A stretch of DNA of 64,000 nt from positions 75,595-139,594 of IMG/VR virus record IMGVR_UViG_3300016471_001035. One strand, written 5' to 3'. How positions within the stretch are numbered: the first letter of the stretch is position 1; each line of letters opens with the position of its first letter. This stretch comes from a virus. Shown here in pieces: positions 18,926 through 64,000 of this stretch. The notes beneath the pieces are model-generated. The model saw only the letters and a list, made by a program, of their open reading frames with translations. It had not been told where the DNA came from and searched no databases. The position numbers were made by a program, and so were the translations under genes.

Positions 18926-18931
18926 ATTAAG

Positions 18932-19783: not shown

Positions 19784-19784
19784 A

Positions 19785-20105
19785 TTATTTCTCTAAAACC
19801 GCCTTTCCTATTAATGGATCAAATCTAAGACTTATACCCGTATTACCTAGTTTTTTAGGTGTAGTACTAGAATATTTTAAGTTAAATTGATCTTCAACAT
19901 CTTTTATATCAGAACTATTAATAGCAATCTTACCTGTTTTTTTTCTTAATAAGCTTAATACTCTTTGGTTCTTAAGTATTGTTTGATGTGCTTTGGGAAC
20001 AAACCTCGCTTGTGAGGGTAGAGTTTCTCCTAAACCCTCATGTCGCTTTTTAACAAAATCTCCTTTTTTGTTGAATTTACGCCAATGATCTTTAAACGTA
20101 TTCAC
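19785..20105 (-). CDS. Small basic late protein
   Basis: 106 aa, GTG start 5 nt after TAAATA (20111-20116); MNTFKDHW start. Confidence 0.7.
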   Translation of the reverse strand: MNTFKDHWRKFNKKGDFVKKRHEGLGETLPSQARFVPKAHQTILKNQRVLSLLRKKTGKIAINSSDIKDVEDQFNLKYSSTTPKKLGNTGISLRFDPLIGKAVLEK

Positions 20106-20119
20106 TTAAGTATTTAAGC

Positions 20120-20150
20120 AAAAAAAAGGGCCTAATTTGACTTAGGCCCT
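20120..20150 (-). terminator. Rho-independent terminator
   Basis: Perfect 9-bp stem AGGGCCTAA(20127-20135)/TTAGGCCCT(20142-20150), 6-nt loop, A8 run 20120-20127 giving a U-tract on the minus strand downstream of 20177-21085. Confidence 0.85.
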
Positions 20151-20176
20151 AATTTTTACTATTTTTGACTAATTTA

Positions 20177-21085
20177 TTATTTTAGTCCTGCTAGATAAGC
20201 ACCTACTTTGCTTGTCTTAGAGGCAACTACATTAGCCTTACCCTTTGGAGATGTTGGGGCACCACCCTTAACACCTGCACCTACTAGGGCATGGCCCTTT
20301 TCACCATCATTACCAACTTTATCCGTTACCTTGCCATCGCCTTCACCGTGAGAAACAAGGCTCTTTGTTACATCACCAACCTTGTTATCTTTCTTTTGAA
20401 GGGACTGACCGGCTGAATCGGGAAGTTCTTTTAATTCTGTGGCTTCTTTAGCAACGCCGTCTTCTTCGTCTTCATCCTTCTTATCGTCCTTCTTATCTTC
20501 TTTCTTTTTCTCTTCGTTGGACTCTTCAGGAGTTGTTTCATCACCGGCTTCTTCACCACCTAAATCTTCTTCGCCAGCGGCTTCCTCATCACCAAGAACT
20601 GCCACCAAAGCATCGTGTAGCTTTTGGGCTAGATCCTTAGAGAGAGTAACTGTTACTTCTTCACCACCGACATCTTCACCAGCATCGCCCGAGGGCAACC
20701 CGAGAGCAGCGGCGTCATTTGCCTCGGTATCATCTGGCTGACCGGACATTACGTCCTCATATAGTTTGTCAAAAATAGATTTGCTCATAAAAGTATTTAT
20801 TGTTTGAGTTTCTGTTTTTTCAAGGTTTTGTGAGAATTTTTTAGGCTCATAAAAATTTTCTTTTTTAGCGGTTTTAGGATCAATAATATCCTTATTAAAT
20901 CCATCTGCGTTTTCAGGGCCAGAAGCTTTAGGAAGAATAGCGCTTTTATCAGCTTTTGCTTCAACAGGCTTCTTATCTTCAACACGCTTAAAAGTATCCT
21001 TAGGAGGAAATACACTTTTCTTTTCTTCAATAACTTGCTTTTCATAGTATTCACCTAATTTAACTAGCGTTCTGACACCGTTCAT
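20177..21085 (-). CDS. Acidic low-complexity late protein, candidate prohead core/scaffold component
   Basis: E/D/K-rich, several hydrophobic-x-E sites, own late promoter and terminator, divergent from terminase. Confidence 0.6.
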   Translation of the reverse strand: MNGVRTLVKLGEYYEKQVIEEKKSVFPPKDTFKRVEDKKPVEAKADKSAILPKASGPENADGFNKDIIDPKTAKKENFYEPKKFSQNLEKTETQTINTFMSKSIFDKLYEDVMSGQPDDTEANDAAALGLPSGDAGEDVGGEEVTVTLSKDLAQKLHDALVAVLGDEEAAGEEDLGGEEAGDETTPEESNEEKKKEDKKDDKKDEDEEDGVAKEATELKELPDSAGQSLQKKDNKVGDVTKSLVSHGEGDGKVTDKVGNDGEKGHALVGAGVKGGAPTSPKGKANVVASKTSKVGAYLAGLK

Positions 21086-48015: not shown

Positions 48016-50412
48016 ATGCCTACATTTTATCAAACAACTTCTGCAGACAAGACATCTATTTTGTATGATTTTAAAACTATAGATACGTCAAGAGACGTAG
48101 TTATATCTTTTGACTATAATTGTTCACTATTTAACTCTACAGGAGTTGATGGGTTTAGTCTTTTTTTAGCTGAAAGTATTAATGCTCCAGTGGGAGGTGC
48201 TGTTGGCCCGGGGTTAGGCGCAACATCCTTAGTAGCACTATCTACTGTAGGTTATTTTACTAACCCTTTACCGCCTTTTGATCTTCTGCCTGTAAACGTT
48301 CCAGTTGTTTTTAATGGTGCTGAAACTAGTGCACTTGTAATAGGTTTTGATATAAGTGGTAGATTTGGCTCTGGTAATTATTACGGGTTAAACGGACCTT
48401 CACAAGAAATACCTAATACAATAACTTTAAGAGGAGGTAAAGATCAAGGATTTCAATTTCTTTATAAAACACCTCAACTGAATACTTCTGCATTCGAAGA
48501 GCCTTTCTATCTTTATACTGCTTCAGCTACAGCATTCAATACATTTAGAGCAAGACTAACAAATTTAGGTAAAACTATTATTTTAGATCATAAGATTGGA
48601 ACAGGTAAATATAATAATATTTTTAGTTATAATCTACCATATTTTCTTCCTCAATATGTGTATCCATGTCTAGGATTCAGTACAAATATAGATTTTAATA
48701 CAATAAATTTACGCGTAAAAAACTTTCATGAAAACGGATTTTTTGTAACACCTACTAATACACCATCATGGACACCCACAGTTACGCCTACACCTACAGT
48801 TACGCCTACTAGAACCGCTACTCCCACGGTTACACCTACTAATACAGTTACACCGTCTGTTACGCCTTCTAATACCGTTACACCTTCCGTCACACCTTCT
48901 AATACCGTCACACCATCAATAACCCCGTCTAATACAGTTACTCCTTCTATTACACCTTCCAATACTGCTACGCCATCAGAAACACCTACTAACACGCCTA
49001 CGCATTCAGAAACACCTACCAACACGCCTACACCAACAGAAACACCTACCAACACACCCACACCCACTCAAACAGTAACACCTACAGTAACGCCTTCTAA
49101 TACACGTACGCCAACAGCAACGCCGACTAGAACTGTAACACCTACAGTAACGCCTTCTAATACTGCTTCACCTACGGTAACCCCGTCTATAACACCGACC
49201 AATACACGTACTCCTACGGTCACACCGTCCGTCACTCCTTCAGCTACAAATATTAACTATACGGTATTCCCATCTAATCAAACAAATATTATTATTAATG
49301 ATAATACTGTTGCAACCCCGTATCCTGTAGAATTTACAGTTTCAGGTATTACAAGAATAGTAGATAAGATTACTATAAAGTTAATAAACTATAATCATGA
49401 TTTTGCTGCTGACGTTGCTATGTTGTTAGTAGCACCTAATGGTCAATCAACCATCGTAGTTGGCAGGGTAGGCGAAGGCCCCGCTATTAATGTAGACGTA
49501 ATGCTAGATCAAAATGCAAGCCAAGCTTGGGATGGTTATTCATCAGGTACTTACAAGCCTAATACAATATCGGATGATTTCCCATTCGACAATATAAATG
49601 GGTGCCCCGTTGGCCCTTATAATACATCGCTTGACACATTCTTCTATATGTCACCAGGTGACGTTAATGGTACCTGGAAATTATACATACAAGACTTTGC
49701 ACCTGTTGATGTAGGGACTATGCAAAGCGCACAGTTATATGTATATCAAGTATCACCATTTGCATCACCTACACCTACTGCTTCGCCTACTGTTACGCCT
49801 TCAGTTACACCCACAATAACACCTACATTCCCTCTACCTACATCAAGCGTAACACCTACTAATACTCCTACAGTTACTAATACGCCTTCACCTACAGTAA
49901 CGCAATCACAAATAGACTATATTTCATTCCTATCGAGTACCAGTAATCTCATTATAAATGATGAAAGTATAGCTACTCCTTATCCACTCACATTTAATGT
50001 CTCTGGGCTAGCATCTACATATTCTAGAGTAACTGTACAATTAAGCGGGTATAATCATGACTTTACTGAAGATGTTGTCATGCTTCTTGTTTCTCCTACT
50101 AATACTACTTGTTTATTAGCCGGTAGAGTTGGTTTAAATTCTGCCGTTGATACTACAGTAGTATTAGATCAAAGCGCATCTATTGCTTGGGATGGGTATA
50201 GTTCAGGGTATTACAAACCTAACACTACTTCTAATACATTTGCAATGAGTAGTAATAACGGTTGCCCCGCAGGCCCGTATAACACAACATTAAATATATT
50301 TAACAATATAAATTCTGCAAACGCCAACGGTACTTGGAAGCTATATATTCAAGACTTTGCATTCGGAGATATTGGCAGCCTTAGCAACGCTACTTTAAGA
50401 TTCCATTCATAA
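48016..50412 (+). CDS. Modular virion protein: lectin-like domain, Thr/Pro mucin-like linkers, two proprotein-convertase P-domain-like repeats
   Basis: DGFSLFL...VIGFD (L-type lectin-like); about 165-aa TP tract; two about 165-aa repeats each with [36 protein letters not shown]. Confidence 0.75.
48748..49248 (+). repeat. Degenerate coding repeats encoding TPTxTPS/TPSNT units
   Basis: ACx CCx periodicity; wobble positions diverged while the peptide is conserved. Confidence 0.9.
49765..49900 (+). repeat. Second Thr/Pro/Ser linker between the two P-domain-like repeats
   Basis: [21 protein letters not shown]...SPTVT. Confidence 0.85.
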
Positions 50413-50420
50413 ATTTTTAT

Positions 50421-50448
50421 TTGATTTAAATACATTGTGTATTAAAAT
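50421..50448 (+). promoter_or_regulatory. Sigma70-type promoter of the glycosyltransferase operon, start codon at predicted +1
   Basis: TTGATT-N16-TAAAAT-N6-GTG(50455). Confidence 0.7.
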
Positions 50449-50454
50449 ATTAAA

Positions 50455-51723
50455 GTGAAAAATAACAAAGAATTAATTTTTATTTCAATAGCTTCATATA
50501 GAGATCCGCAGTTAGTACCTACTTTAAGAGATTGTGTTGCCAATGCTAAATATCCTGAAAATTTAAGGTTTAATATTTGTTGGCAAAAAGACGAGAAGGA
50601 ATCATTAGAAGAGTTTACAAATGATTCGAGAGTTAAATACATTGAAGTTCCTTATAACGAGAGCAAAGGGACATGCTGGGCAAGAAGCAGAATTCAAGAT
50701 AATTATGATGGTGAAAAATATTATTTACAGCTAGACAGTCATCATCGCTTTGTAAAAGATTGGGATGAAAAATGTATTGGAATGGTCAAGCAACTTCAAA
50801 AGAAAGGACATAAAAAGCCTCTGCTAACTGGTTATATTTCTAGTTTCAATCCAGATAATGATCCCGCTGAACGTATACAAATACCATGGAAAATGAATTT
50901 CGATAGATTTATACCAGAGGGAGCAGTTTTCTTTTTACCCGCATCAATCGACGATTATAAAGAACGAACTGAACCGCTACCAGCAAGATTTGTTTCAGCT
51001 CATTTTATTTTTACACTTGGTAAATGGGTAAAGGAAGTTCCTTACGATCCTAATTATTATTTTCATGGTGAAGAAATTAACCTTGCTGTGAGATCATTTA
51101 CTTGGGGATATGACTTATTTCACCCTCATATGGTAATCGCATGGCATGAATATACTAGACGAGGAAGAACGAAACACTGGGATGATGTTAAGGAATGGGG
51201 CGAATTTAACAGACTTTCGCACCTACGTAATCGTAAATTGTTTGGTATGGATGGTGAGATCGATGATATTAAGTGGGGAAAGTATGGATTTGGTAAGAAG
51301 AGAACATTACAGGATTATGAAAAATATTCCGGTCTTTGTTTTAAAAAGCGTGCAGTTCAAAGATGGACGCTAGAAAATAAACTAGCACCAAATCCTAATG
51401 ACAATCTTAGTGCGGAAGAATATGAAAAGTCTTTCTTAAAGATATTTAAGCATTGTATTGATGTCGGATATGACAAAGTGCCTGAAAAAGACTATGACTT
51501 TTGGTGTGTAGCATTTAAAGATAAAGAAGGTAAAGATGTATATAGAAAAGATGCTGATAGAGCTGAAATAGATAGAATGTTTAATGATCCGGACAAATAT
51601 TGTAAGATTTGGCGTGAGTTTAATGCAGAAGAAATGCCTCATAGCTGGATTGTATGGCCTCACAGTGTATCTAAAGGGTGGTCAGATCCTATAACTGGTG
51701 TAATAGGTAATAAAGTCAGCTAA
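50455..51723 (+). CDS. GT60-like (Skp1/polypeptide GlcNAc-transferase family) glycosyltransferase
   Basis: IFISIASYRDPQL, KGTCWAR, YYLQLDSHHRF (DSH metal motif), EVPYDP, FHGEE, FTWGYD, WHEY. Confidence 0.8.
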   Translation: MKNNKELIFISIASYRDPQLVPTLRDCVANAKYPENLRFNICWQKDEKESLEEFTNDSRVKYIEVPYNESKGTCWARSRIQDNYDGEKYYLQLDSHHRFVKDWDEKCIGMVKQLQKKGHKKPLLTGYISSFNPDNDPAERIQIPWKMNFDRFIPEGAVFFLPASIDDYKERTEPLPARFVSAHFIFTLGKWVKEVPYDPNYYFHGEEINLAVRSFTWGYDLFHPHMVIAWHEYTRRGRTKHWDDVKEWGEFNRLSHLRNRKLFGMDGEIDDIKWGKYGFGKKRTLQDYEKYSGLCFKKRAVQRWTLENKLAPNPNDNLSAEEYEKSFLKIFKHCIDVGYDKVPEKDYDFWCVAFKDKEGKDVYRKDADRAEIDRMFNDPDKYCKIWREFNAEEMPHSWIVWPHSVSKGWSDPITGVIGNKVS

Positions 51724-52496
51724 TGAAATACACGTATTGTATTGCATCAGAGGCTCATTATCCTAACTATACGAAAAGAGTTAAGGAGAACAGTCTTAAA
51801 TCATACTTTAACCTTGAACTTGACAAAAAAAATATACCATATTATATTTCAACAAACAGAATTCAGGATTTTGATGAATTCAAGGACCACCCTACAGTAA
51901 AAATAATAGATATTAACGAAGCAAGAAGAGATGTTCCCGAATCTTTTAATTACGAGCTTTATCCCGACGACCCCACGGGTATCTACCCGGCTAGATATCC
52001 ATGGAACATGCGTAGATTTTTAGTTAGACGCGCCGGACTGGACGGGCTTTGTGGCTGCTATGTAATAGATGCTGATTCTGTTAGTCACCCTTCAATTAGT
52101 AAGGATAATTTTGTAGATCATATGGATAAAATATATGAGCCTAAGGTCTGTGGGTCAAATGCTGCTATATTTAAATATTCTCCCGGCTCTACATTTGAAG
52201 TGTTTGCGAGACATGATGCTTATATAAAGCATTTCGGGTTTACATTTACACCCGATCAGTATACTACTATAGACGGCCCGGCAATGTTTTTTATGGGCGA
52301 GACTAGTCAAGATCTTATTAATTTATATGAGAAATGGAATTTCTTTGCTTTGTTTGGCTATAAAAAGGAGTTTGGCTTCGGTTGTGAAAGTAATTTCCAT
52401 ACCAATCTATCATTTACATTTCCTTCTGTTGGCTTTACAGTAAAGGAAAAGCCTCTACCTTTTTATCCTGAGCATCATTATGAGGATAGATATTAA
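51723..52496 (+). CDS. Putative nucleotide-sugar transferase
   Basis: YPWNMRRF...YVIDADS (DxD); TAATG-coupled within the GT operon. Confidence 0.55.
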   Translation: MKYTYCIASEAHYPNYTKRVKENSLKSYFNLELDKKNIPYYISTNRIQDFDEFKDHPTVKIIDINEARRDVPESFNYELYPDDPTGIYPARYPWNMRRFLVRRAGLDGLCGCYVIDADSVSHPSISKDNFVDHMDKIYEPKVCGSNAAIFKYSPGSTFEVFARHDAYIKHFGFTFTPDQYTTIDGPAMFFMGETSQDLINLYEKWNFFALFGYKKEFGFGCESNFHTNLSFTFPSVGFTVKEKPLPFYPEHHYEDRY

Positions 52497-53146
52497 TGAA
52501 ACTTCTTATTAAGTTTCCTAGCAGAGGCAGGCCTGAAAAATTTAAATCAACGTTCGAGCAGTATTATAGATTACTCTCTAATAAGCGTGAAGTAAAGTTT
52601 GTTTTTACATTTGACACAGATGACGAGACTATGAATAACGATATTATTAAGAATTTTTTACAACTTTACTCTAATATTTGCGAGATTAATTACGGTGATA
52701 GTAAAAATAAAATTGAAGCTATTAATGCTAATTTACAGGATAAGCAATTCGACGTCTTATTACTCGCTAGTGACGACTTAATTCCCTATGTTCAAAATTA
52801 TGATGATATAATTTGTAGTCACATGGAAGAATTTTTTCCCGATACTGATGGCAGTATTCAATATTATACACCTATGTGGGCAGATACATTAGATATTATG
52901 TGCATCTTAGGATTTAAGTATTTTAAAAGATTTAATTACATTTACCACCCTGCTTATAAAGGGTTATTCTGTGATAACGAATTTACTGACATTAAAAAGA
53001 AGCTAAACAAAAATAAATTTGTTTGCCAACAACTATTTGATCATAATTATACTTCAGGCGATCCTACTTCATGGAGAAGTAATTTTTTTCAACATGAAGA
53101 TTGGCGAGTTTATGAAGATAGAAAATTACGCAATTTTGATCTATAA
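52496..53146 (+). CDS. GT2-like glycosyltransferase
   Basis: KFPSRGRP, FDTDD, KIEAIN, ASDDLIP, FCDNEF, FDH. Confidence 0.75.
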   Translation: MKLLIKFPSRGRPEKFKSTFEQYYRLLSNKREVKFVFTFDTDDETMNNDIIKNFLQLYSNICEINYGDSKNKIEAINANLQDKQFDVLLLASDDLIPYVQNYDDIICSHMEEFFPDTDGSIQYYTPMWADTLDIMCILGFKYFKRFNYIYHPAYKGLFCDNEFTDIKKKLNKNKFVCQQLFDHNYTSGDPTSWRSNFFQHEDWRVYEDRKLRNFDL

Positions 53147-53148
53147 TT

Positions 53149-54669
53149 ATGTTTTCAATCTCTAACGTAGCTTTTGCAGATAAGGGGTTTTACATTAATC
53201 TCGATTCGTCTTTAGATAGAAGAAATCACGTAGAAAAGCAAATAGAAAAATTCAATATTAAAAATATTGAAAGGTTTTCAGCTTTAACTGATGAATTACG
53301 CCAATGCACTGCTACTAAAAGTCAAAAAGCAGTATTTGAAAAAGCTATTAGCGAAAATTTAAATACTGTGTTTATTGCTGAGGATGATTTTGATATATTA
53401 GAGAATATTAAGCAGTACAATAATAATACTGTTTCTCTAGAAGACCACCTAAAAGAATTAAAAGTAGAATTAGATACTTTAGACTGGGACATATTTCTTT
53501 TTGGTTGCACCCCAAAAACATTTTTAATACCTTATACTAAAAATATTAGCAAGGTTCATAAAAGTACAGGAGCCTGGGGTTATCTTATTAAAAAAGAAGC
53601 AATGCAATATATTTTAGATAATTTTAATTACAAAAGAGATTATTTAGCAATAGACGATATTTTACCTATTTTAAATTTTAGAGGTTTTAAAACTTTTTGC
53701 GCATCACCGATTACGATTCACCATGCTAAAGGGTTCGAATCTACATTGAACCCTCGAGGACCAGTTAACTATGATAATATGATAGATGGTAGCTACCACA
53801 AATATCTAGAAGGATTTATTAAAGATGATTATTTAGATCAATATTATTTAGAGCGTAACTTAACAATAGTAGTCGCAGGGCACTTTGCAGAGAATTTTTT
53901 ATATTATTTGAGATATTTACTATTTAGTTTGCCTGAAGAAATTACTAAGTGTAAATTCCTCGTATATTACGATCACAATCCTAATATAGAAAATCCCATA
54001 TTACCACTTTTACATTATTTTTATAATAGAAATCGTACAATTACCTATGATATTAAGTTTGTAAAGTATGGTTTGATAGACACTGTTAAGACAATGCTAC
54101 AAGACATAACTACTCCATACTTTATGTTTTTAGAGCATGATTGGGTATTTTTAAGAAAAGACAATATTAACTTTAGATCTATACTAAAAGCATTTGATAA
54201 ATATGACTTTATACATTCTGTTTACTTGAATAAAGATGACAATAATTTAAGAGGCTTTGAAATTTGCCAAGATAAAACGGGTGCTACATCACCATTTCAA
54301 TTGGAAGATAGAGTTAAGGAAATAAACTTAATTACAACTTGTAGATGGTCTAATAACCCCTGTATACATAGAACAAGTAAATATAAAGAATGGTATACAA
54401 CATATTTGGATTCTGTACATAATAATGTCGGTCATGGCCAACATGATGTAGAAGAAGTAATGATACCCGCTTATAGAGACGTTATTTCTAAATCTAACTG
54501 GATTGACATTAGAGATAATTGGGGTACATATTTATATGGTAATATTGGTGAAGGACCATACGTTGGTCATACAGATGCTTCTAGAAGATATCTTACATCA
54601 GCAAGATCTCAGCCAGAAGAAAATGGTGATGAATTTATAAAGAACAACCCTCTTCCCGAACATGATTAA
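53149..54669 (+). CDS. Two-domain glycosyltransferase (GT25-like plus second GT-A domain)
   Basis: FYINLDSSLDRR, IERFSA, IAEDD, GAWGYLI, AIDD; second half FMFLEHDWVF, WSNNP, YVGH. Confidence 0.8.
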   Translation: MFSISNVAFADKGFYINLDSSLDRRNHVEKQIEKFNIKNIERFSALTDELRQCTATKSQKAVFEKAISENLNTVFIAEDDFDILENIKQYNNNTVSLEDHLKELKVELDTLDWDIFLFGCTPKTFLIPYTKNISKVHKSTGAWGYLIKKEAMQYILDNFNYKRDYLAIDDILPILNFRGFKTFCASPITIHHAKGFESTLNPRGPVNYDNMIDGSYHKYLEGFIKDDYLDQYYLERNLTIVVAGHFAENFLYYLRYLLFSLPEEITKCKFLVYYDHNPNIENPILPLLHYFYNRNRTITYDIKFVKYGLIDTVKTMLQDITTPYFMFLEHDWVFLRKDNINFRSILKAFDKYDFIHSVYLNKDDNNLRGFEICQDKTGATSPFQLEDRVKEINLITTCRWSNNPCIHRTSKYKEWYTTYLDSVHNNVGHGQHDVEEVMIPAYRDVISKSNWIDIRDNWGTYLYGNIGEGPYVGHTDASRRYLTSARSQPEENGDEFIKNNPLPEHD

Positions 54670-56971
54670 TATACAAAAAATTTTAAATTTTAATAACAAA
54701 AAGTTTGATCCTTCTATTGTTAATTCAGATCAAATTAAATATATTGTAACTTATCTTGCAGAAGCTATAGAAAGCCTGGAAGGCGATGTTGTTGAATTGG
54801 GATGTTACGTAGGAGAGACCAGTAAGTACATTTCAAAAACATTAGAAGTTGCTAATTCTAATAAAAGCTTTTTTGTATTTGATTCGTTCGAAGGGCTTCC
54901 TGATTTGTCTAAATTTGAAGAAGGCACAGGGTGGAAGCCGAGGACTTTAAACACTACAGAAGAAGTATTGACAGAAAATTTTACTATTAATAACGTAAAA
55001 TTGCCAATTATAACTAAGTCTTGGTTTAAAGATATTAGGGACGATCAGCTTCCCGAAAAAATATGCTTTGCATTTTTAGATGGTGATTTTTATACCTCTA
55101 TTTTTGATAGTTTAGAAAAAATTTATAACCGAGTAGTTGATGGCGGGTATATTTTAGTTCATGATTATAAGCGTAATGATTTACCCGGGGTAGAAGCTGC
55201 AATATTAGAATACTTTAGATTGAATAATATAGAACTTAATATTATAGAAATATGCGAACAGCTAGCTGTTATTTGCAAAAACAAAGAAATCAAAAAGATT
55301 GAACCCTCAAAGTCAAAATTCACTATTGTCACAGGCCTTTGGGATATTGGCAGAGATAAGCTCAAGGAAGGATGGTCTAGAGGCTATTCTCACTACTTAA
55401 ATAAATTAGAGGAGCTTTTGAAAGCTGATTTTAATTTAATTATTTTCGGTGATGAAGAATTAGAAAAGTTTGTTTTTGAGAGAAGAGAACACTATAATAC
55501 TCAATTTGTTAGACGAGATTTAAATTGGATTAAAAACATGCCATTTTTTAATAAAATTCAAGAAATTAGAACGGACCCTAATTGGTATAATCAAGCCGGT
55601 TGGTTATCTGAATCTACACAAGCAAAGCTCGAGCTCTATAATCCATTAGTAATGAGTAAAGTATTTTTGCTCAACGACGCTAAAATTTTAGATAAATTTG
55701 ATTCTGAGTTTCTCTTTTGGCTAGATGCTGGTATAACAAACACAGTACATTATGGGTATTTTACACATGATAAAGTACTAGAAAAGCTACCTAAATTTTT
55801 AGAGAAGTTTTTATTTATAAGCTTTCCTTATCCCGATGGTGGAGAAATACATGGGTTTTCTAGAGAAAAAATGAATGAATTAGCGGGCGTTGAAAATGTT
55901 GAATATGTCTGTAGAGCCGGTTTTTTTGGCGGCCCTAAAGCATCAATCTCCGAAATTAACAGTATATATTATACTTTGTTAAACAACACACTTAATGATG
56001 GGTATATGGGAACAGAAGAAAGCATCTTTACATTAATGACATATCTCCACCCCCATCTTTTTACAAGAGTTTCAATAGACGGCAACGGACTTTTAAGTAA
56101 GTTTTTTGAGGACCTTAAAAACCTAGATATTTCAGAAAAAAATATTGATTTGGATAGTAGAGTACTCTCCGGTGTAAGCATATATGTCATAACATTTAAT
56201 TCGCCAAAGCAATTTGAAATTCTATGTGAATCGTATTTAAAGCATCCAGGGTTTTTAAAAGAAACTAAAAATTATCTATTAGATAATAGCACGGATGAAT
56301 CTACATTTGAAAAATATAAATTGTTGTGTGAAAAATATAATTTTGAGCACATTAAAAAAGACAACTTAGGTATATGTGGCGGTAGACAATTTATTGCAGA
56401 TCATTTTAATGAAAGTGATTCTAAGTATTGTATCTTTTTGGAGGATGATATGGGGCTTTGTGAGCAAACTACAGATCTTTGTAGAAATGGTTTCCCAAGA
56501 TATACAGATAATTTATTTTACAAATTAGTAAAAATAATGGATATAGAAAAGTTTGATTTTCTTAAATTGTCGTTTAGTGAATTTTTTGGAGATAACTCAA
56601 TACAATGGGCTTGGTATAATGTACCCCAGGTAGTTCGCGAAAGATTCTGGCCTCATAACAAAAAGCTACCAAAAATGGGTCTAGACCCTAATGCACCTAG
56701 AACAGAATTTAAAAATATAGATTTTATTGATGGGCTTGGTTATATTACAGGAGATATATATTACTGCAATTGGCCTCAAATAGTATCTAAGGAAGGCAAT
56801 AAAAAAATGTTTATTGAAACTAAATGGGCATCGCCATTTGAACAAACATGGATGTCTTATATGTATCAGCTTACTAAGGAAAATAAATTAAAAGGCGCGT
56901 TGTTATTACTGTCTCCTATTGAACACAATAGATTTGATCATTACTCTAGAGAATTACGTAGAGAAAACTAA
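54662..56971 (+). CDS. Fusion: TylF/MycF-like sugar O-methyltransferase, HtrL/YibB-like domain, GT-A-like domain
   Basis: GDVVELGCYVG, FDSFEGLP, FLDGDFY, HDY; TIVTGLWDIGR, FWLDAG, GFFGG, GTEE; IFLEDDM. Confidence 0.8.
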   Translation: MINIQKILNFNNKKFDPSIVNSDQIKYIVTYLAEAIESLEGDVVELGCYVGETSKYISKTLEVANSNKSFFVFDSFEGLPDLSKFEEGTGWKPRTLNTTEEVLTENFTINNVKLPIITKSWFKDIRDDQLPEKICFAFLDGDFYTSIFDSLEKIYNRVVDGGYILVHDYKRNDLPGVEAAILEYFRLNNIELNIIEICEQLAVICKNKEIKKIEPSKSKFTIVTGLWDIGRDKLKEGWSRGYSHYLNKLEELLKADFNLIIFGDEELEKFVFERREHYNTQFVRRDLNWIKNMPFFNKIQEIRTDPNWYNQAGWLSESTQAKLELYNPLVMSKVFLLNDAKILDKFDSEFLFWLDAGITNTVHYGYFTHDKVLEKLPKFLEKFLFISFPYPDGGEIHGFSREKMNELAGVENVEYVCRAGFFGGPKASISEINSIYYTLLNNTLNDGYMGTEESIFTLMTYLHPHLFTRVSIDGNGLLSKFFEDLKNLDISEKNIDLDSRVLSGVSIYVITFNSPKQFEILCESYLKHPGFLKETKNYLLDNSTDESTFEKYKLLCEKYNFEHIKKDNLGICGGRQFIADHFNESDSKYCIFLEDDMGLCEQTTDLCRNGFPRYTDNLFYKLVKIMDIEKFDFLKLSFSEFFGDNSIQWAWYNVPQVVRERFWPHNKKLPKMGLDPNAPRTEFKNIDFIDGLGYITGDIYYCNWPQIVSKEGNKKMFIETKWASPFEQTWMSYMYQLTKENKLKGALLLLSPIEHNRFDHYSRELRREN

Positions 56972-57001
56972 TTTAGTACGTTTAAATACGTGTATTTTAA
57001 G

Positions 57002-57007
57002 TAAATA
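57002..57007 (+). promoter_or_regulatory. T4-type late promoter core
   Basis: TAAATA-N5-GTG(57013). Confidence 0.65.
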
Positions 57008-57012
57008 ATAAT

Positions 57013-57864
57013 GTGAATTATGTAAATTACGTTTTGTCGAGCGTACAAATTCCCGGATATCCTTCTGTATTAAATCATTATATTTTTATTGACCCTGTAC
57101 TAGGAACTTCTATTAATTGGCCTGCCTGTGCAAACGGAAGCTTTTTTTCTGAAACAACCGGCACGTTTGTATACCCCGCAACTGCTAAAGGCGGTTTATT
57201 TTTCCCTTGGGGTTATTCAGTTGAAAACACCACACTTACAGCAGATTTAGGCATATTTAAAGGGCAGGTAACTCTTTTAATTAGCCCCTCAGCTATAGAT
57301 AATACGTATTTTACAACATTAAAAATAATTTACGATTTTAATGATAATGAGATTATTAACATTGAAAAGGGTATTGTAGAAAATATTTTACCAGGCAATG
57401 TTGCTTTTCTTGATGCTGGCAACCCAAACGATAAAAATATATCACACGTATATACATCAAAATCATTAAGCGGGACAACTTATTATCCAACTATTACTGT
57501 TTTAAACGGTAATATGGCATTAAGTGTTTTTAATTTAAAGCTTTCACTTCTACCTGGCACAGTATTCGATTTTGAAGATTTTCATCTAATAAATACCTCA
57601 CAGCTTTCTAGGTTTGACGCACCGCAATTTAAATCATTAGAAGTGTTTGAATTAGATGAAGAAAACAATAATTTTGTATCAAATTTTCTTTTAATAAGCT
57701 CTTATCCCACCCCTACGCCTTCCTACACGCCAGTGCCCACCCCTACACCATCAATTACCCCTACTATAACACCTACTATTACTCCTACTAAAACTGTTAC
57801 GCCTACGATAACACCCTCACCATCTATTACACCTACTATAACTCCATCGAGGTCGAGTTTATAA
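57013..57864 (+). CDS. Putative virion protein with C-terminal Thr/Pro tract
   Basis: PKD-like YDFND...ISHVY...YYPTITV segment; about 48-aa (TPTI)n tail. Confidence 0.7.
   Translation: MNYVNYVLSSVQIPGYPSVLNHYIFIDPVLGTSINWPACANGSFFSETTGTFVYPATAKGGLFFPWGYSVENTTLTADLGIFKGQVTLLISPSAIDNTYFTTLKIIYDFNDNEIINIEKGIVENILPGNVAFLDAGNPNDKNISHVYTSKSLSGTTYYPTITVLNGNMALSVFNLKLSLLPGTVFDFEDFHLINTSQLSRFDAPQFKSLEVFELDEENNNFVSNFLLISSYPTPTPSYTPVPTPTPSITPTITPTITPTKTVTPTITPSPSITPTITPSRSSL
57706..57849 (+). repeat. Thr/Pro coding repeat
   Basis: PTPTPSYTPVPTPTPSITPTITPTITPT... Confidence 0.85.
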
Positions 57865-57867
57865 ATA
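57860..57867 (+). promoter_or_regulatory. T4-type late promoter, full consensus
   Basis: TATAAATA-N6-ATG(57874). Confidence 0.75.
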
Positions 57868-57873
57868 TTTACT

Positions 57874-60800
57874 ATGGATGTAATTAATTTAGATAGTACT
57901 AATTTTGTTGGTTTGTCAGCAAAATATAGCAATGATGAAACTTTAAAGTTTAATCAATCTATTATATTTTCTGAACAAAGCATCTATCTATCGCTTAACG
58001 AAATATTGAAAGAAATTTACGATAATAAAATAAACAACTATTCTAATTTGTTTTTAACAAATAAAAACGTTCTATCAACCGGTATATATATTGATAAACT
58101 AGAGCCATTAGAAGATGAAGGGTTCTCTACATATTTTGCTGCTAATGCTGCGGGTACTATAACACCATCTACTAAATTTTGGGTAGTAGATGAACCCGCA
58201 ATTAGCGTAAATGTAGCGCAAGTTAAAGTAGATGGCGAGTTTAGTACTATAAACAACAAGTATTTTTTTGATGTAGAGCTATTAACTGAAAAACTTTGTA
58301 AAATTTCCCACGAAAACAGCAACGTTACTAGATATTTAACTGTCGATTATACCGGTAATCTGTCTTTTGCAAAAGATGCAGGATTAGATTTAATTGGCCC
58401 TCTTAGCCCCCAGATATTTTATTACATTTATGATAGAGCTTATAATTATATGGTTTTAATAAAAAACATAAACGATATACCTAAATTTGTTACTTTTAGC
58501 GCTAATAATGAAGATCTTGCATTAACCGATCCCATTACAGGTACGAGTATACCGTATTCAATAACTTCTGTTTTTAGAGTAAGAGAAAGAAACCCTCTTC
58601 CCAATAAAACAGAATTATTAGATCCTTGGGTTAGCTATACAAAAGATTTTAAAACAAATTCACAAGATATTAATGCTGATAGAAGTTTTGATAACACTAA
58701 TACAAACTTTTTAATTAATAACCAGTATTATACAATTTCTGGTAACGAAATTAACTTTAATTTATTATCACTTAAAAATACCTCTACCCCGGAATACAAC
58801 ATTTCTAGAGCTAATCCTTTTTTTGATGAAATAAATGTTGAGTTTAGAGACTATAAAAAGCTTCATACAGGTACATATCAAAATTTAGGAAATGATAATA
58901 TTACTGCTGGGTTTGAAAGTTATACTAATGCTATAACTCTTAAGAAAGATAAAGTAACATATTTTCATATTCCTCAAGTATTTTATCCTTTTTTAAGACT
59001 TAATATAAATGATTCTGGATTGACAGAAGCAGGAGCTATAGCTGGTGATCATCCTTTAAAATCAGATAAAATATTTAAGAAAAAAGCTGATTATAAATAT
59101 ACTTCTAATTTTGGCGATACTGCGGAAGAAAATTCAGGCGAATTTTTATGCGCATGGCTTTCCGGAAATACAAGCCCAGACGTTAGACCTGTGTGGGTAG
59201 ATAGATATTATAATCCAAAGAAAATTTCTGGTTATCAAGCTCTAACTGCATCAGACTTTAAAGCAATTAAATATATTTCTAATTTTGACTGCTTGGTAGA
59301 GAAAGCTTTTGAAACGTTTGCGAGGGATGTGGATGTTTTTGATAAACCATCTGACTTAATTTTTGAAAAAGGAACTTATTATGCGTATCATCATTACGGG
59401 CCAAAAGACGTAGATAAATTTATTGAAACCCTATCTCTCGATCTGGTAGAAAAAGGTATAAAGACTTATCTTTTCAATAATGGTGCTGACGCTACATATA
59501 CTGCGGTAATAAATGAAAGTGATGAGGTATCAGAATATTTATTTGACGGTAAGAAATACGGTACTACCTCACAGTTATCCGCTATTCAGGCGTCTAACCA
59601 ATTTACTTTAGTTTTTGATGGCTACAGTTCAGATTGGAATAAACCCATAGGAAATCAATTAGTTGGTAATTATGATAGAGACGGTTTTGGTATTTTTAAT
59701 GAAAATTTAGTTACACCCACTTTATTTGTACCTATTTTAAGTGGTCTGTATGTTACAAACTTAGATTATAGAATTCTCAATACATTAAAGTTCGATAGTA
59801 ATATTACAGGTATTATAAGACTTCAGGGTATGAACGATTTTTATGGCATATTTGAAGACAATAGCTTTAGAAGATTTAATTTAAATTACTCTGAAACAAG
59901 ACGTGGTTATCCTGCTGATATAACAGATGAATTAGGTAAAGTTAGAGGTGTTGATTATAATGAAACAGATGCAAGAGTTCTTATTGGCGATAACCCCGGG
60001 GTTAAAAAACTAATGAGGCTAGATTTAAACTCTCATGAAATTACAGATATTACTTCTGGTACTTTTAATTTAACAAAATACCCTAGAAGAATATCAAAAG
60101 GGCTTAATATAAACACAGCAAATTCAATAGTATTTTATAATGACGTAATGTATTTAACGCAAGGTTCAAAAGCAATAAGAGCCAAAGATACAATTTTTTA
60201 TAATTTTGAAAATTCTCAAATACTACAATGGAAGGATATTACTAATTTAACAAGTATTAATCCAATAACAGCATTTGTATCAAGCACTACTATAAATGAC
60301 TTTTCTGTAGACTTTGATAGCAATTTATGGATAGTATTTGATAATAATAAATTTGCAAAATATAGTTATGACCGCGTTTTTATACTTTCTGGTGAATTTA
60401 TAGATACCGAAGACAAAAACTATACTAATTACAAAATAGATTTTACTGCAGATTTTAATTTAGGAAGTTATTCTCAACATGCGATAGTTACTCGTCAATC
60501 ATATACAGGAGAAAAAAATAATTTACAATTCGTAAAGCTTTCATTAAGCGGTGTTACTGTAGATAGAAAATATTTTTCAGAATATACGCCTTTAGGTAAT
60601 AATTATATTTGTAAAAACGTTCTAGTAAAGGACGTATTTACAACTTCACCTACATTATCTGTACAGTACCCCAACGGTATTGTTTTAAATCAAATTATTC
60701 CCAGTGAAAATTACACCAACCTTATTTCTTTTAGTGCTAATATTGCAAATTACTTTTATAATAGAAACTTACAAACGTATAATTTTGCAAATTCTAAATT

Positions 60801-61461
60801 CTTAACAACTTATGTTAAGGATAAATATCCTTCAAATAGTATAAATGTAAAAGCGCAACTAACCAATATTTTTAACACTAATGATACAGTATTAACAGAA
60901 ATTATTTTTAATTTATCTGCATTAGATGTAGGGTATCATAATTTTGCAGTCAGATTTGATGCTGACGGCGGATATATGCATTTGTTTATAGATGGCCAGC
61001 AAAAAGGAGTAACTGAATTTTCACCTAGAAAATATAAATTTAGTAATTTAATATACCGTCCATTTTTAATTGGTAGTTCGAGTTACGCATATTCATTACC
61101 TTTATTTTCGTATTTAAAAAACACATCATTTCTTGCATATGATTTCAGAGTAAAGAATTTCTATATATATGATACACCTCTTTTTGATTTTGATATTATG
61201 TTTCATGCAAGAAAAGGTATGAGCATACAAGATATAGTATTTGATGTTGCATGTGGTAGAAGAAATTATTTTGAAGAAATTGAGAGGTACTTTAAATTTA
61301 CACCTCCCGGCTCTAAATCTACACAATATAATTTAATTATTAAAAATTCTGGTATTCAAGACGAAGAATTGCAGTATGCTTTGGAGCAGCGTATTTATGA
61401 AATAATAAACAGTACTGCTCCAGTTTATTCAAGGCTAAATAATATTAAATGGGTAAATTAA
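57874..61461 (+). CDS. Large putative virion protein with C-terminal LamG/ConA-like segment
   Basis: YHNFAVRFD...MHLFIDG...FLIG...KNFYIYDTPL; late promoter. Confidence 0.65.
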   Translation: MDVINLDSTNFVGLSAKYSNDETLKFNQSIIFSEQSIYLSLNEILKEIYDNKINNYSNLFLTNKNVLSTGIYIDKLEPLEDEGFSTYFAANAAGTITPSTKFWVVDEPAISVNVAQVKVDGEFSTINNKYFFDVELLTEKLCKISHENSNVTRYLTVDYTGNLSFAKDAGLDLIGPLSPQIFYYIYDRAYNYMVLIKNINDIPKFVTFSANNEDLALTDPITGTSIPYSITSVFRVRERNPLPNKTELLDPWVSYTKDFKTNSQDINADRSFDNTNTNFLINNQYYTISGNEINFNLLSLKNTSTPEYNISRANPFFDEINVEFRDYKKLHTGTYQNLGNDNITAGFESYTNAITLKKDKVTYFHIPQVFYPFLRLNINDSGLTEAGAIAGDHPLKSDKIFKKKADYKYTSNFGDTAEENSGEFLCAWLSGNTSPDVRPVWVDRYYNPKKISGYQALTASDFKAIKYISNFDCLVEKAFETFARDVDVFDKPSDLIFEKGTYYAYHHYGPKDVDKFIETLSLDLVEKGIKTYLFNNGADATYTAVINESDEVSEYLFDGKKYGTTSQLSAIQASNQFTLVFDGYSSDWNKPIGNQLVGNYDRDGFGIFNENLVTPTLFVPILSGLYVTNLDYRILNTLKFDSNITGIIRLQGMNDFYGIFEDNSFRRFNLNYSETRRGYPADITDELGKVRGVDYNETDARVLIGDNPGVKKLMRLDLNSHEITDITSGTFNLTKYPRRISKGLNINTANSIVFYNDVMYLTQGSKAIRAKDTIFYNFENSQILQWKDITNLTSINPITAFVSSTTINDFSVDFDSNLWIVFDNNKFAKYSYDRVFILSGEFIDTEDKNYTNYKIDFTADFNLGSYSQHAIVTRQSYTGEKNNLQFVKLSLSGVTVDRKYFSEYTPLGNNYICKNVLVKDVFTTSPTLSVQYPNGIVLNQIIPSENYTNLISFSANIANYFYNRNLQTYNFANSKFLTTYVKDKYPSNSINVKAQLTNIFNTNDTVLTEIIFNLSALDVGYHNFAVRFDADGGYMHLFIDGQQKGVTEFSPRKYKFSNLIYRPFLIGSSSYAYSLPLFSYLKNTSFLAYDFRVKNFYIYDTPLFDFDIMFHARKGMSIQDIVFDVACGRRNYFEEIERYFKFTPPGSKSTQYNLIIKNSGIQDEELQYALEQRIYEIINSTAPVYSRLNNIKWVN

Positions 61462-63078
61462 ATGAATATATCTAGTGAAATATTAAATGAGGGGTTAATA
61501 TATGATAGATATCTTGGAGAAGAGTTATCATTACCATATACTCTAGATGATATAAAGGTACAGCCTAATGATACTGTGTCCTCTAGTCTAATAAGTTTAA
61601 AATTTAAACATTTATATGACAATTTTTTATATTTGTATAAAAATACTCTCCTTGCTTCTAATGTTATACCAGTTTCATCAACTGCAATTGCTGGTATAAC
61701 AGCATCATCAACTATATTTGCGTGGTACGAAGGTTTAAGCTCAAGAGAATTTAAATCATTATCAAACAATTCCAATTTACAAGGTGTTGATAATACGAAA
61801 GCAATAATGCTTTTAAAAAATAAAGATTTTGATAGATATTCACTTTTTACATCATCAGGAACAGCTATAAATATATTTAATTTTGATTATAATGCAACGT
61901 ACATTGAAAAAGTATTAACCGTTTCGCAAATTGATCAAGGATACGGAGTGCCGTTCAAAAGCGTTTGCGATTTTGAATTTTATAAAAACAATTTATTCGT
62001 TCTAGATTGTGAATTAAATAGGCTTATAAAATATGATGCAAGCGGATTTTACGAACTTAATACAGTTACAAATAATAGATTATTTTATATAGACTCTATT
62101 GGCAATTATGGAGATCAAAACTCAAAAACGGATTTTTACGACCCTAAAGGCATTACAATTTTTAATAATTTTATTTTTGTGTTAGACTCAGGCAACAAAT
62201 GTATAAAAAAGTACGATACAAATTTAAATTGGAAGTATACTTTTAGACTTTATCAAGACTTTTTATCCGCATTTCCTATTGATATTGCCGCAGATAGCAA
62301 CGGTAATTTATTTGTCTTAACTGATAACGATAAAATTTTTATTTATGATAATGATATTAAAAATAGAAAAATTATAGATCTCGTGGCACTAAAAGAAAAT
62401 GATGAAAAGTTTAAAAAGCTAGTTTTTTCTCAAAGCGATACTAATATTTTTTATTTATATTCAGATAAAAATATATACAAAAAACTAGTTAACAAGCCTT
62501 ATAGTACAGTAGGAAAATATTTACTTTATTTGTTTAAATATGATGACCCTGCTGAAAAAATAAATGCATTTGCATCTGCGCCCACACTAGATTTAAAAAG
62601 CGATTCAAATATTATGTTTTCTGTATCTGGTAATATAGGTAAATTTGGATATTTTTATGATAATATTAATTTATTTGATATATTAGCAGTTAGAGATTTT
62701 GATATATATGGTTTCGATGAACTAAAATTTAATTTTGATGAATATGTACAGAATTGGGTTTTTAATAAGAATATTTCTAAACTTTTATTAGGCATGATGA
62801 GATTGAGAGATGAAATAATTGGAAAGTTTATAGCTTCTAAAGACTATAAAGGTAATATAACCTTTACAGGTACCAGATATCTTATTCCTCAAGAATTAGA
62901 TACTATTTATTTTGAGCAAGATATTACCTTTTTTGTAGGTAATAATGAGCTTCTTACAAGCAGTATAATAAACAGACCTCTTACAAAACTTTTTAATGTT
63001 CAAGAATCATTATTAAAAATTCTTGATGCTGAAATTATAAGAACACCTAGTAACAACACGCCAATAACCCTTAACTAA
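61462..63078 (+). CDS. NHL-repeat beta-propeller putative virion protein
   Basis: LFVLDCELNRLIKYD, FYDPKGI...FVLDSGNKCIKKYD, PIDIAADSNGNLFV. Confidence 0.7.
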   Translation: MNISSEILNEGLIYDRYLGEELSLPYTLDDIKVQPNDTVSSSLISLKFKHLYDNFLYLYKNTLLASNVIPVSSTAIAGITASSTIFAWYEGLSSREFKSLSNNSNLQGVDNTKAIMLLKNKDFDRYSLFTSSGTAINIFNFDYNATYIEKVLTVSQIDQGYGVPFKSVCDFEFYKNNLFVLDCELNRLIKYDASGFYELNTVTNNRLFYIDSIGNYGDQNSKTDFYDPKGITIFNNFIFVLDSGNKCIKKYDTNLNWKYTFRLYQDFLSAFPIDIAADSNGNLFVLTDNDKIFIYDNDIKNRKIIDLVALKENDEKFKKLVFSQSDTNIFYLYSDKNIYKKLVNKPYSTVGKYLLYLFKYDDPAEKINAFASAPTLDLKSDSNIMFSVSGNIGKFGYFYDNINLFDILAVRDFDIYGFDELKFNFDEYVQNWVFNKNISKLLLGMMRLRDEIIGKFIASKDYKGNITFTGTRYLIPQELDTIYFEQDITFFVGNNELLTSSIINRPLTKLFNVQESLLKILDAEIIRTPSNNTPITLN

Positions 63079-63079
63079 T

Positions 63080-64000
63080 ATGTCAAAGTATATTTTCAGA
63101 CTAAATGCAGGTAAAGCTCAGGAAAATATTACCCCCATTTTTCCTACACAGACGCCTACTATTTCTCTTACACCTACTAATACTCCTACAAACACACCTT
63201 CATCTAATATAGCTCCTACTAGCACGCCTACACCTACCGCAACTCCAACAAGAACATCAGCAGAGACACCCACCCCTACGCGAACACCTACCTCCACTGT
63301 AACACCTACATCTACTATTACCAGTACAAACACTTCTACTGTGACACCAACTACAACTAATACTGCTACAACTACACAAACACCAAGTACTAGCCCATCT
63401 GCTACTTTCTCACCAACACCTACTACTTCACCTACAACAACAGAAATCGGCACACAGACACCAACAACCACCCCTACTAATACTTTAACGCCTAGTTCTA
63501 CTGTAACATCTACTGCAACATTAACACCTACACCTTCAGTTACTGAAACAGCAACACCTACTATTACACCAACTGAAACCCCTACTCCTACTGTAACACC
63601 AACAGTAACACCCACTGAAACACCTACACCTACTGAGACTATAACTCCAACAACTACAACAACAGTTACAGCTACTCCTTCGTCTACTAATAATCCTACA
63701 CCTACGTCTACCGAAACACCGACAACTACACCTACACCTACGTCTACCGAAACACCCACTCCTACTGAAACACCTACAACCACACCAACTACTTCTGAAA
63801 CATCTACACTTACTCCTACAGTTACACCATCTGAGACAACTACAGTAACACCGTCAGTCACAGAAACACCTACTTTAACTGTTACACCTTCTATTACAGA
63901 AACGTTAACCCCTACTAATACCCCCACGTGTACTTCAACAGTAACACCCACTGTAACTGTTACCTCAACGCCCACTGAAACTGAAACCCCTACTCCTACT
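63080..64000 (+). CDS. Mucin-like Thr/Pro-rich protein, 3'-truncated; absent from the ORF track
   Basis: ATG at 63080 just after the upstream TAA; MSKYIFRLNAGKAQENITPIFPTQTPTISLTPTNTPT..., open to the window end with nearly 290 T/P/S/E-rich residues. Confidence 0.88.
   Translation, partial: MSKYIFRLNAGKAQENITPIFPTQTPTISLTPTNTPTNTPSSNIAPTSTPTPTATPTRTSAETPTPTRTPTSTVTPTSTITSTNTSTVTPTTTNTATTTQTPSTSPSATFSPTPTTSPTTTEIGTQTPTTTPTNTLTPSSTVTSTATLTPTPSVTETATPTITPTETPTPTVTPTVTPTETPTPTETITPTTTTTVTATPSSTNNPTPTSTETPTTTPTPTSTETPTPTETPTTTPTTSETSTLTPTVTPSETTTVTPSVTETPTLTVTPSITETLTPTNTPTCTSTVTPTVTVTSTPTETETPTPT
63142..64000 (+). repeat. Long degenerate TPT/TETPT coding repeat
   Basis: ACx/CCx-dominated, strongly C-rich and G-poor tract. 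Confidence 0.9.

Follow-up and report, generated by a model that had tools for sequence, protein, structure and literature searches.

We analyzed a gene cluster headed by a family GT60 glycosyltransferase in a 64,000-nucleotide stretch of viral DNA (hereafter, the window), which forms the end of a 139,594-bp viral record of IMG/VR with an estimated completeness of 66%. The record represents an uncultured, lake-derived, T4-like myovirus; a family-B DNA polymerase and UvsX/RecA-like and DnaB-like proteins are encoded within the window, as are a large terminase, tail sheath, tape measure, and baseplate wedge protein (wedge gene, 39575-41428). The cluster lies downstream of the wedge gene, amid very large plus-strand genes with PKD, P_proprotein, and NHL domains, in the part of the tail module that holds the fibre/adhesin genes. 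It consists of five plus-strand enzyme genes, with junctions at 51723/51723, 52496/52496, 53146/53149, and 54669/54662. Genes for proteins with long Thr-Pro tracts flank it on both sides (TP1 and TP2), and a third such gene (TP3) reaches the end of the window (Table 1). The positions of these open reading frames (ORFs) and the tight coupling of the five enzyme genes were as placed by an initial annotation of the window.

Enzymes of the GT60 cluster

The lead enzyme is a true member of GT60, as the initial annotation had assigned it: the 422-residue protein scored 231 bits on PF11397 (cut-off, 21), covering profile positions 2-44 and 92-350, and it matched phrog_24687 end to end. A sequence search of PDB found no relative, and a search of NCBIfam found no match. 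An AlphaFold model was built with an alignment of 22 sequences (predicted local distance difference test score (pLDDT), 89.7; predicted TM score, 0.84). The 29 best PDB entries for this model were all polypeptide N-acetylgalactosamine (GalNAc)-transferases of family GT27 (Z 19.0-21.9 over about 275 residues, with a root-mean-square deviation of about 3.7 Å by VIA-align), and Foldseek agreed. These entries aligned to residues 2-330 of the model with their catalytic domain only, at 12-16% identity, and generic GT-A enzymes (e.g., SpsA) trailed from Z 17.5 with about 190-220 residues aligned. The C-terminal 90 residues or so are beta-rich and were not matched to the GT27 lectin domain in most alignment rows. 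The motif QLDSHHRF (D94, S95, and H96) and H231 are invariant among the 22 sequences, down to 38% identity. The D-x-H motif of GT27 binds Mn2+, and by analogy these invariant residues may do the same. The kinship to polypeptide GalNAc-transferases that had been noted earlier was thus borne out by both the best fit of the model and the kept D-x-H motif.

Characterized GT60 enzymes transfer alpha-N-acetylglucosamine (alpha-GlcNAc) to Thr or hydroxyproline of polypeptides and are described as relatives of GalNAc-transferases without the ricin domain (PMC8724618; PMC3769586); for the Trypanosoma cruzi enzyme, activity was measured with the peptide KPPTTTTTTTTKPP in the presence of Mn2+ (PMC3769586). 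By analogy with these enzymes, we propose that the phage GT60 is an initiating polypeptide N-acetylhexosamine (HexNAc) transferase, probably for alpha-GlcNAc. As no 2-oxoglutarate-Fe(II) prolyl-hydroxylase-type domain was found in the 139.6-kb contig, Thr/Ser is a likelier acceptor than hydroxyproline, and a hydroxyproline route of the Skp1 type was set aside. None of the five proteins of the operon has a hydrophobic or transmembrane segment or a signal sequence, and the GT60 enzyme is predicted to be soluble. In one related locus (L181 6021-8493, minus strand), two tandem GT60 paralogues, with 53% and 37% identity to the enzyme of the window, adjoin a homologue of the partner protein described below.

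Conservation was counted in 80 related IMG/VR loci around GT60. A homologue of residues 218-769 of the 769-residue protein, here called the two-GT-A partner, was found near GT60 in 72 of the 80 loci, and in 11 of these 72 the methyltransferase was fused to it. The middle genes are rare: the 257-residue protein occurred in four loci, the 216-residue protein in five, and the 506-residue protein in nine. The cluster is therefore composed of a constant core (GT60 and the two-GT-A partner), variable strain-specific transferases, and an optional methyltransferase, which is the pattern expected of a glycan with a fixed base and a diversifying periphery.

The partner was modeled as two GT-A domains (pLDDT 87.6). 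Foldseek ranked two-GT-A enzymes first, namely LH3, Mimivirus R699, LARGE1, K4CP, COLGALT1, and PmHS2 (E 8e-11 to 1e-6); K4CP is a chondroitin polymerase and PmHS2 a heparosan synthase. The nearest structures to its HtrL half are enzymes of the GT6 type (Z about 13), and those to its C-terminal domain are B4GALNT1, POMGnT1, and GnT-I (Z about 15). The motif W-x-D-x-G is invariant, as is E-D-D, which belongs to the C-terminal domain. With two modeled GT-A domains and motifs in each, the partner fits by its architecture the bifunctional class of the LH3, LARGE1, K4CP, and PmHS2 type.

The TylF-like O-methyltransferase and the HtrL-like domain that had been recognized in the 769-residue protein were both confirmed by Pfam. 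The TylF match (PF05711) had an E-value of 5.5e-22 (78.7 bits against a cut-off of 23), and the domain is similar in sequence to the sugar O-methyltransferases NovP (1.3e-9) and MycF (1.2e-6); it is thus a predicted sugar O-methyltransferase. The HtrL_YibB match (PF09612) had an E-value of 2e-15 (57.6 bits against 24.1), and the score on the NCBIfam equivalog TIGR02192 was 58.4, below the cut-off of 264.9. This part is therefore a distant HtrL-like GT-A domain and not YibB. The GT25 match (PF01755) in the 506-residue protein reached 36 bits (cut-off, 24) and covered only profile positions 73-198, within the first 170 residues or so. The remaining C-terminal 300 residues or so matched no Pfam family, PDB entry, or paralogue in the operon, and neither this protein nor the 216-residue protein matched NCBIfam. 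The 257-residue protein had no match in Pfam or NCBIfam, and its structural lead in the Atlas was to a PF03407/PF01501 cluster. The initial annotation had counted about six glycosyltransferase-like domains. This is a fair count, as five domains of the glycosyltransferase type are supported, one (257 residues) has a lead, and one (the C-terminus of the 506-residue protein) has no match.

Table 1. Genes of the GT60 cluster and adjacent tail-module genes, with positions in the window
Feature	Position	Strand	Description
TP1	48016..50412	+	798 aa; tract and P_proprotein-type domains; candidate acceptor, fibre/adhesin-like
GT60-family glycosyltransferase	50455..51723	+	422 aa, GTG start; PF11397 E 3.6e-68; phrog_24687 E 2.5e-166
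257-aa protein, probably GT-A (GT8/Nucleotid_trans-like)	51723..52496	+	Structural Atlas lead only, TM 0.60
216-aa putative glycosyltransferase	52496..53146	+	phrog_14945 'glycosyltransferase' E 3.9e-8
506-aa protein, N-terminal GT25-type domain at aa ~12-171	53149..54669	+	PF01755 E 8.3e-9
769-aa protein: TylF aa 36-198, HtrL_YibB-type GT-A aa ~218-483, GT2/GT13-like GT-A aa ~497-765	54662..56971	+	Pfam and structure models
TP2	57013..57864	+	283 aa; ~220-aa globular domain, then Thr-Pro tail; candidate acceptor
Two large tail-module genes without tracts	57874..63078	+	1195 aa (no family match) and 538 aa (NHL repeat)
TP3	63080..64000	+	Interrupted at the contig end; ~20-aa N-terminal peptide, then pure Thr-Pro tract

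Similar small inverted repeats (TTTAAATAC...GTATT) are present in the intergenic regions before GT60 (50424-50446) and before TP2 (56983-57000), and the shared repeat could form a hairpin at the borders of the operon. The sequence TAAATA lies six bases ahead of the GTG start of TP2. A candidate early promoter of the sigma-70-like type before GT60 (TTGATT-N16-TAAAAT-N6-GTG) was rejected: in this AT-rich DNA, a scan gave 50 such sites against 47.8 in shuffled sequences, and these sites being no commoner than chance, no conclusion on the timing of expression was drawn.

Thr-Pro tracts and their association with GT60

The window was scanned for tracts with the codon-neutral pattern [TS]P[TS]x[TS]P[TS]x[TS]P, and the result was compared with 100 shuffles. 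The 17 matches all fell inside TP1, TP2, and TP3, and the shuffles gave none; the long TPT/TPS tracts reported earlier in these three genes are therefore real. In TP1, an N-terminal globular domain of about 240 residues is followed by a 171-residue tract (residues 242-412; nucleotides 48739-49251), a P_proprotein-type jelly-roll, a second tract of 54 residues (residues 579-632; nucleotides 49750-49911), and a second P_proprotein domain. The tract of TP2 is a 59-residue C-terminal tail (residues 225-283; nucleotides 57685-57861), with which the protein ends. That of TP3 runs from residue 21 to the end of the contig, at least 286 residues. Complete TP3 homologues in two relatives have 1096 and 1158 residues, with a tract of about 730-1000 residues and a C-terminal globular tip of about 110 residues, for which a Pfam search gave no family. 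These TP3-type genes (L409 2242-5529 in G001 and L410 3025-6498 in G002) share a conserved N-terminal peptide of about 20 residues (MAKYIFRLN-like), and the chain, if extended, could reach far beyond the length of the tail.

The whole 139.6-kb contig contains one further tract gene (G000 17847-20669, minus strand), which lies outside the window, 58 kb from the operon. It encodes 941 residues, in which two tracts, one of about 190 and one of about 170 residues, each precede one of two similar globular domains of about 190 residues. Summed over the four proteins, the 933 tract residues are 41% Thr, 21% Pro, 11% Ser, and 6% charged. Thr or Ser stands on both sides of 183 of the 198 tract prolines. 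As the spacing of the prolines is nearly always even (2, 4, 6, or 8), the tract is a strict (T/S-x)n pattern in which x is mostly P, V, I, N, or E. The DNA of the repeats is degenerate, with matches of 68-95%, which indicates that they are maintained at the protein level and are not recent duplications. The free C-terminal tail of TP2 and the near-pure tracts of the TP3 type fit the role of a carrier better than that of a simple hinge. As the tract genes flank the operon, Thr/Ser/Pro-rich candidate acceptor domains are co-encoded with the enzymes, as in a mucin-type system. One NCBIfam profile, that of an anammox S-layer glycoprotein, weakly matched the tail of TP2 (E 0.0016); the match was due to low complexity and was set aside.

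In 57 of the 80 GT60 loci, a tract ORF lies no more than 10 kb away, and the gene directly upstream of GT60 has a tract in 27 of 77. The 104 tract ORFs near GT60 group into 21 families that have no relationship to one another beyond the tract itself. The tracts are concentrated in two intervals, -4 to 0 kb from GT60 and +6 to +8 kb, the latter lying immediately beyond the enzyme genes. TP2 homologues follow the cluster in 13 loci. In relatives anchored by the baseplate wedge gene, the gene directly upstream is a tract gene (TP1 homologue) in all 13 with GT60 within reach. At the record level, tracts were found in 15 of the 15 GT60-positive wedge-anchored relatives and in 10 of the 34 GT60-negative ones (Fisher p 3e-6); most of these ten are contigs broken inside the tract gene. 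One complete relative (238.8 kb) has neither GT60 nor tracts. In another relative with a different genome layout (G018), the usual site also has neither, and a divergent GT60 is present elsewhere with a tract-bearing TP2 homologue as its divergent neighbour; in this genome, GT60 and the tract genes have relocated together. All seven of the large or complete GT60-positive genomes examined have tracts. In this phage group, many contigs stop in or beside a tract gene, including that of the window (at 64000), G004, G017, G022, G027, G032, and G045; tract repeats probably break metagenome assemblies and bias the counts of presence and absence.

The association was also examined in reverse. Arbitrary IMG/VR records of at least 26 kb were picked by the tract pattern alone, and control records were picked likewise by a collagen-like repeat. 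GT60 was found in 14 of the 46 tract-selected records and in 1 of the 40 control records, a 12-fold excess (p 5e-4), and six of the tract-selected loci combine the tract with GT60 or the partner in a stretch of no more than 14 kb. The lone control match (G162 61690-63330) is a divergently oriented pair of distant PF11397 ORFs (E 2e-26 and 1e-18). The co-occurrence of GT60 with Thr-Pro-repeat genes, which the initial annotation had suggested looking for across phages, thus goes far beyond chance in both comparisons, with exceptions in either direction that are given below.

Bacterial homologues of GT60 (37-68% identity) were found in Gemmatimonadota, Bacteroidota, Verrucomicrobiota, Acidobacteriota, Pseudomonadota, Actinomycetota, Planctomycetota, and others. 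Many of these loci are on megabase contigs, and some small low-GC contigs from metagenome-assembled genomes may be phage. Full flanks were available for 41 bacterial loci, which contain 39 strict tracts. Of these tracts, 18 fall within the 2 kb immediately upstream of GT60, where an even distribution would place about four, and in 17 of the 41 loci a tract is no more than 2 kb away from GT60. In Sphingomonas and its relatives, a conserved gene pair was observed, in which the end of the gene for a Pro-Thr-tract protein of about 1200-1450 residues abuts or overlaps the start of GT60 (L459, L461, L464, L467, L475, L478, L479, L482, and L483). The family comprises at least 7,392 protein clusters (90% identity) in metagenomes, 311 IMG/VR stretches, and 162 stretches in species-representative genomes of bacteria from many phyla.

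GT60 homologues with 43-47% identity were found in four cultured phages only, the Xanthomonas phages XacN1 and Xoo-sp13 and the Stenotrophomonas phages CM1 and RAS14. The homologue in XacN1 is ORF334 (47% identity), which heads an operon that also encodes a carbamoyltransferase. In the Xanthomonas jumbo phages, a carbamoyltransferase of 765 residues comes after GT60 in place of the two-GT-A partner (L083 16409-18706, which is XacN1 ORF333, and L084 16390-18687); this neighbour suggests a carbamoylated sugar. XacN1 ORF350 has tracts of 190 and 76 residues, and the giant ORF325 has a tract linker. At least two protein bands of XacN1 virions were Schiff-positive, which the authors attributed to ORF328 or ORF334, and they drew no connection of ORF334 to GT60 or to Thr-Pro tracts (PMC5852040).

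Proposed function and alternatives

From these observations, we consider it fairly probable that the phage uses the cluster for mucin-type O-glycosylation of its own fibre-like proteins in the cytoplasm. The soluble GT60 would put a HexNAc, most likely alpha-GlcNAc from host UDP-GlcNAc, on Thr/Ser of the (T/S-P-T/S-x)n tracts of TP1, TP2, TP3, and the fourth tract protein encoded elsewhere in the genome. The two-GT-A partner would then add the next one or two sugars, possibly a repeat. The variable enzymes (the 257-residue, 216-residue, and GT25-type 506-residue proteins) and the TylF-type methyltransferase would vary the glycan and methylate it. Proteins of the tail module would thereby carry stalks or tails that are stiff, hydrophilic, and resistant to proteases. 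The enzymes are soluble, particles are assembled in the cytoplasm, and host UDP-GlcNAc is available there; the operon would need no genes for nucleotide sugars. The data establish the family, fold, motif, and solubility of the lead enzyme, the structure of the operon, and the genomic association of GT60 with tract genes; the acceptor, the donor, the order of the steps, and the benefit to the phage are what we infer. The initial annotation had proposed priming by GT60, extension by the other transferases, and capping by the methyltransferase, a reading that our analysis supports in part.

Several observations weigh against this interpretation. One relative (G019), whose wedge protein has 65% identity, contains six tract ORFs and neither GT60 nor the partner in 76.5 kb (36% of the genome); its TP1-like and TP2-like genes are adjacent, and the operon is missing between them. 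GT60 is absent from six of eight near-complete tract-bearing viral genomes. Conversely, 23 GT60-positive contigs have no tract within 10 kb, and 17 of them have no tract at all in partial genomes of up to 65 kb; no other convincing Ser/Thr-rich stretch was found near these tract-free GT60 loci, except a T/V-rich ORF in L056. The association was counted in records that are not phylogenetically independent and are mostly fragments. The stained bands of XacN1 are not matched to proteins, and a second glycosyltransferase, ORF328, is present in that phage. In addition, the GT25 and HtrL families are otherwise known from lipo-oligosaccharide loci. Clearly, some Thr-Pro tracts serve as plain spacers or depend on other enzymes. 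The independence of tract genes from the glycosyltransferase operon, which the initial annotation had named as evidence against its proposal, was therefore observed in part, and the coupling of GT60 and tracts is strong and not obligatory in either direction.

As one alternative, the cluster might build or alter a glycan of the host envelope (lipo-oligosaccharide, capsule, or S-layer), for example to block superinfection or the adsorption of progeny, and the tracts would then be unglycosylated spacers in a hypervariable fibre region. Tracts without GT60 accord with this idea, as do the origin of GT25 (PF01755, 'LPS biosynthesis') and HtrL_YibB in loci for lipo-oligosaccharide and lipopolysaccharide core and the differences of the middle genes between strains, which are also seen in surface-glycan loci; reviews take the glycosyltransferase clusters of large phages as modifiers of outer polysaccharides (PMC7824862; PMC12801897). 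However, the operon contains no membrane-bound priming transferase, flippase, polymerase, or ligase, its five proteins have no hydrophobic segments, and the characterized members of GT60 act on polypeptides, the enzymes nearest to the model being polypeptide GalNAc-transferases. Modification of the envelope also fails to predict tracts within 2 kb of GT60 in many bacterial phyla or the 12-fold excess in viral records, and we regard it as unlikely. We give a similarly low probability to the idea that phage proteins are glycosylated by the cluster at sites wholly or mainly outside the tracts; the targets could be the capsid, sheath, or other fibre domains. The 17 tract-free GT60-positive contigs and the unassigned Schiff-positive bands of XacN1 would be in keeping with such targets, and the glycans of mycobacteriophages are reported to be at the C-termini of capsid and tail-tube proteins (Freeman et al. 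2023, as cited in PMC12619734). On the other hand, the association, both in position and at the record level, is specifically with tract genes, and characterized GT60/GT27 enzymes favour Thr-rich, Pro-flanked, unstructured acceptors. Other phage proteins are possible targets, especially in the tract-free lineages.

Glycosylation of modified bases of the phage DNA, as in T-even and other phages, is very improbable. The phage is T4-like, the C-terminal GT-A domain of the partner weakly matches the PHROG beta-glucosyl-HMC-alpha-glucosyltransferase (E 2.7e-4), and a sigma-70-like consensus is present upstream of GT60. However, the promoter match is no better than chance, no hydroxymethylase of the thymidylate-synthase type was found in the 139.6 kb (the record being 66% complete), GT60 is no known family of DNA glycosyltransferases, and the linkage to tract genes in phages and bacteria would have no reason. 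Even early expression would not contradict the glycosylation of tracts, since the glycosylation genes of chlorovirus PBCV-1 are early and their products soluble (PMC9614988). A wider form of our proposal is that GT60 and the two-GT-A partner constitute a widespread, undescribed pathway of bacteria and phages, in which the partner builds a polymer on GlcNAc-Thr and TP3-type proteins, with 700-1000 residues of pure tract, become proteoglycan-like virion fibres. The nearest structural matches of the partner include polymerases of repeating disaccharides (LARGE1, K4CP, and PmHS2). We consider this wider form improbable; if it is true, the 'eukaryotic' initiation enzymes of GT27/GT60 have a large prokaryotic and viral reservoir.

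Very few examples of glycosylated proteins in phage particles are known, and the initiation of mucin-type glycans by GT60/GT27-like enzymes is considered a trait of eukaryotes. If the link between GT60 and the tracts is functional, many abundant freshwater phages bear sugar-coated fibres, which would matter for the recognition of hosts, the stability of the particles, their resistance to proteases and grazers, and their adhesion to surfaces, and many bacteria have an unrecognised cytoplasmic route of O-glycosylation.

Comparison with known glycosylation systems

The GT60 enzymes of protists (TcOGNT-2 of T. cruzi, and Gnt2 and Gnt1 of Dictyostelium, the latter acting on Skp1 hydroxyproline) share with the phage enzyme the PF11397 domain, a GalNAc-transferase-like catalytic domain, and the lack of a ricin-type lectin domain. 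Their mucin-type acceptors are Thr-rich and Pro-flanked (PMC8724618; PMC3769586), as are the tracts of the window, and the phage enzyme is predicted to be soluble, like the cytoplasmic Gnt1. Unlike the protist enzymes, it is encoded by phages and bacteria, would act in the bacterial cytoplasm on virion proteins, and has an extra beta-rich C-terminus of about 90 residues and a dedicated two-GT-A partner. The best structural matches of the phage model are the GT27 enzymes (GalNAc-T2, 6nqt; GalNAc-T10, 2d7i; and TgGalNAc-T3), which have D-x-H in place of D-x-D and densely O-glycosylate Thr/Pro-rich mucin domains comparable with the tracts of the window. The phage enzyme differs from them in its low sequence identity, in having neither a lectin domain nor a membrane anchor, and in belonging to another Pfam and CAZy family.

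The proposed system also resembles the glycosylation of serine-rich-repeat adhesins in Gram-positives, in which GtfA/GtfB initiates O-GlcNAc-type modification of long Ser/Thr-rich repeats inside the cell and soluble glycosyltransferases, variable between strains, then act stepwise (PMC5578698; PMC6973325). That system differs in its initiating family, its Ser-rich rather than Thr-Pro acceptors, its accessory Sec export, and its non-viral nature. The initiating enzyme of the GtfA/GtfB type has a GT-B fold.

According to the papers that cite Freeman et al. 2023 (PMC12619734; PMC12801897), mycobacteriophages carry glycosyltransferase genes beside structural genes, and their glycans are on C-terminal extensions, which can be compared with the C-terminal tail of TP2. 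They differ in having actinobacterial hosts, in being siphoviruses, and in their capsid and tail-tube targets; in the study as known through these citing papers, we found no report of GT60 or of Thr-Pro repeat stalks. PBCV-1 also encodes soluble cytoplasmic enzymes, and its A064R consists of two glycosyltransferases and a methyltransferase acting on the terminal sugar (PMC9614988). The 769-residue protein of the window has the same three kinds of domains, although their order and families differ. In contrast to the proposed glycans of the phage tracts, those of PBCV-1 are N-linked and on the capsid of a eukaryotic virus.

The closest cultured examples are XacN1, Xoo-sp13, CM1, and RAS14, in which, as in the phage of the window, GT60 heads a small sugar-modifying operon, with ORF350 and ORF325 as the tract proteins of XacN1. 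These phages belong to another lineage with other hosts and have a carbamoyltransferase as the operon partner. Our literature search found no description of GT60 in phages or of glycosylated Thr-Pro tail fibres. In its mode of action, the proposed system resembles the mucin-type initiation of protists and the glycosylation of serine-rich-repeat adhesins, and, as a virus-encoded particle glycosylation, that of mycobacteriophages and chloroviruses; what is new is the proposed GT60-led version directed to Thr-Pro tracts in tailed phages and bacteria, with its constant two-GT-A partner.

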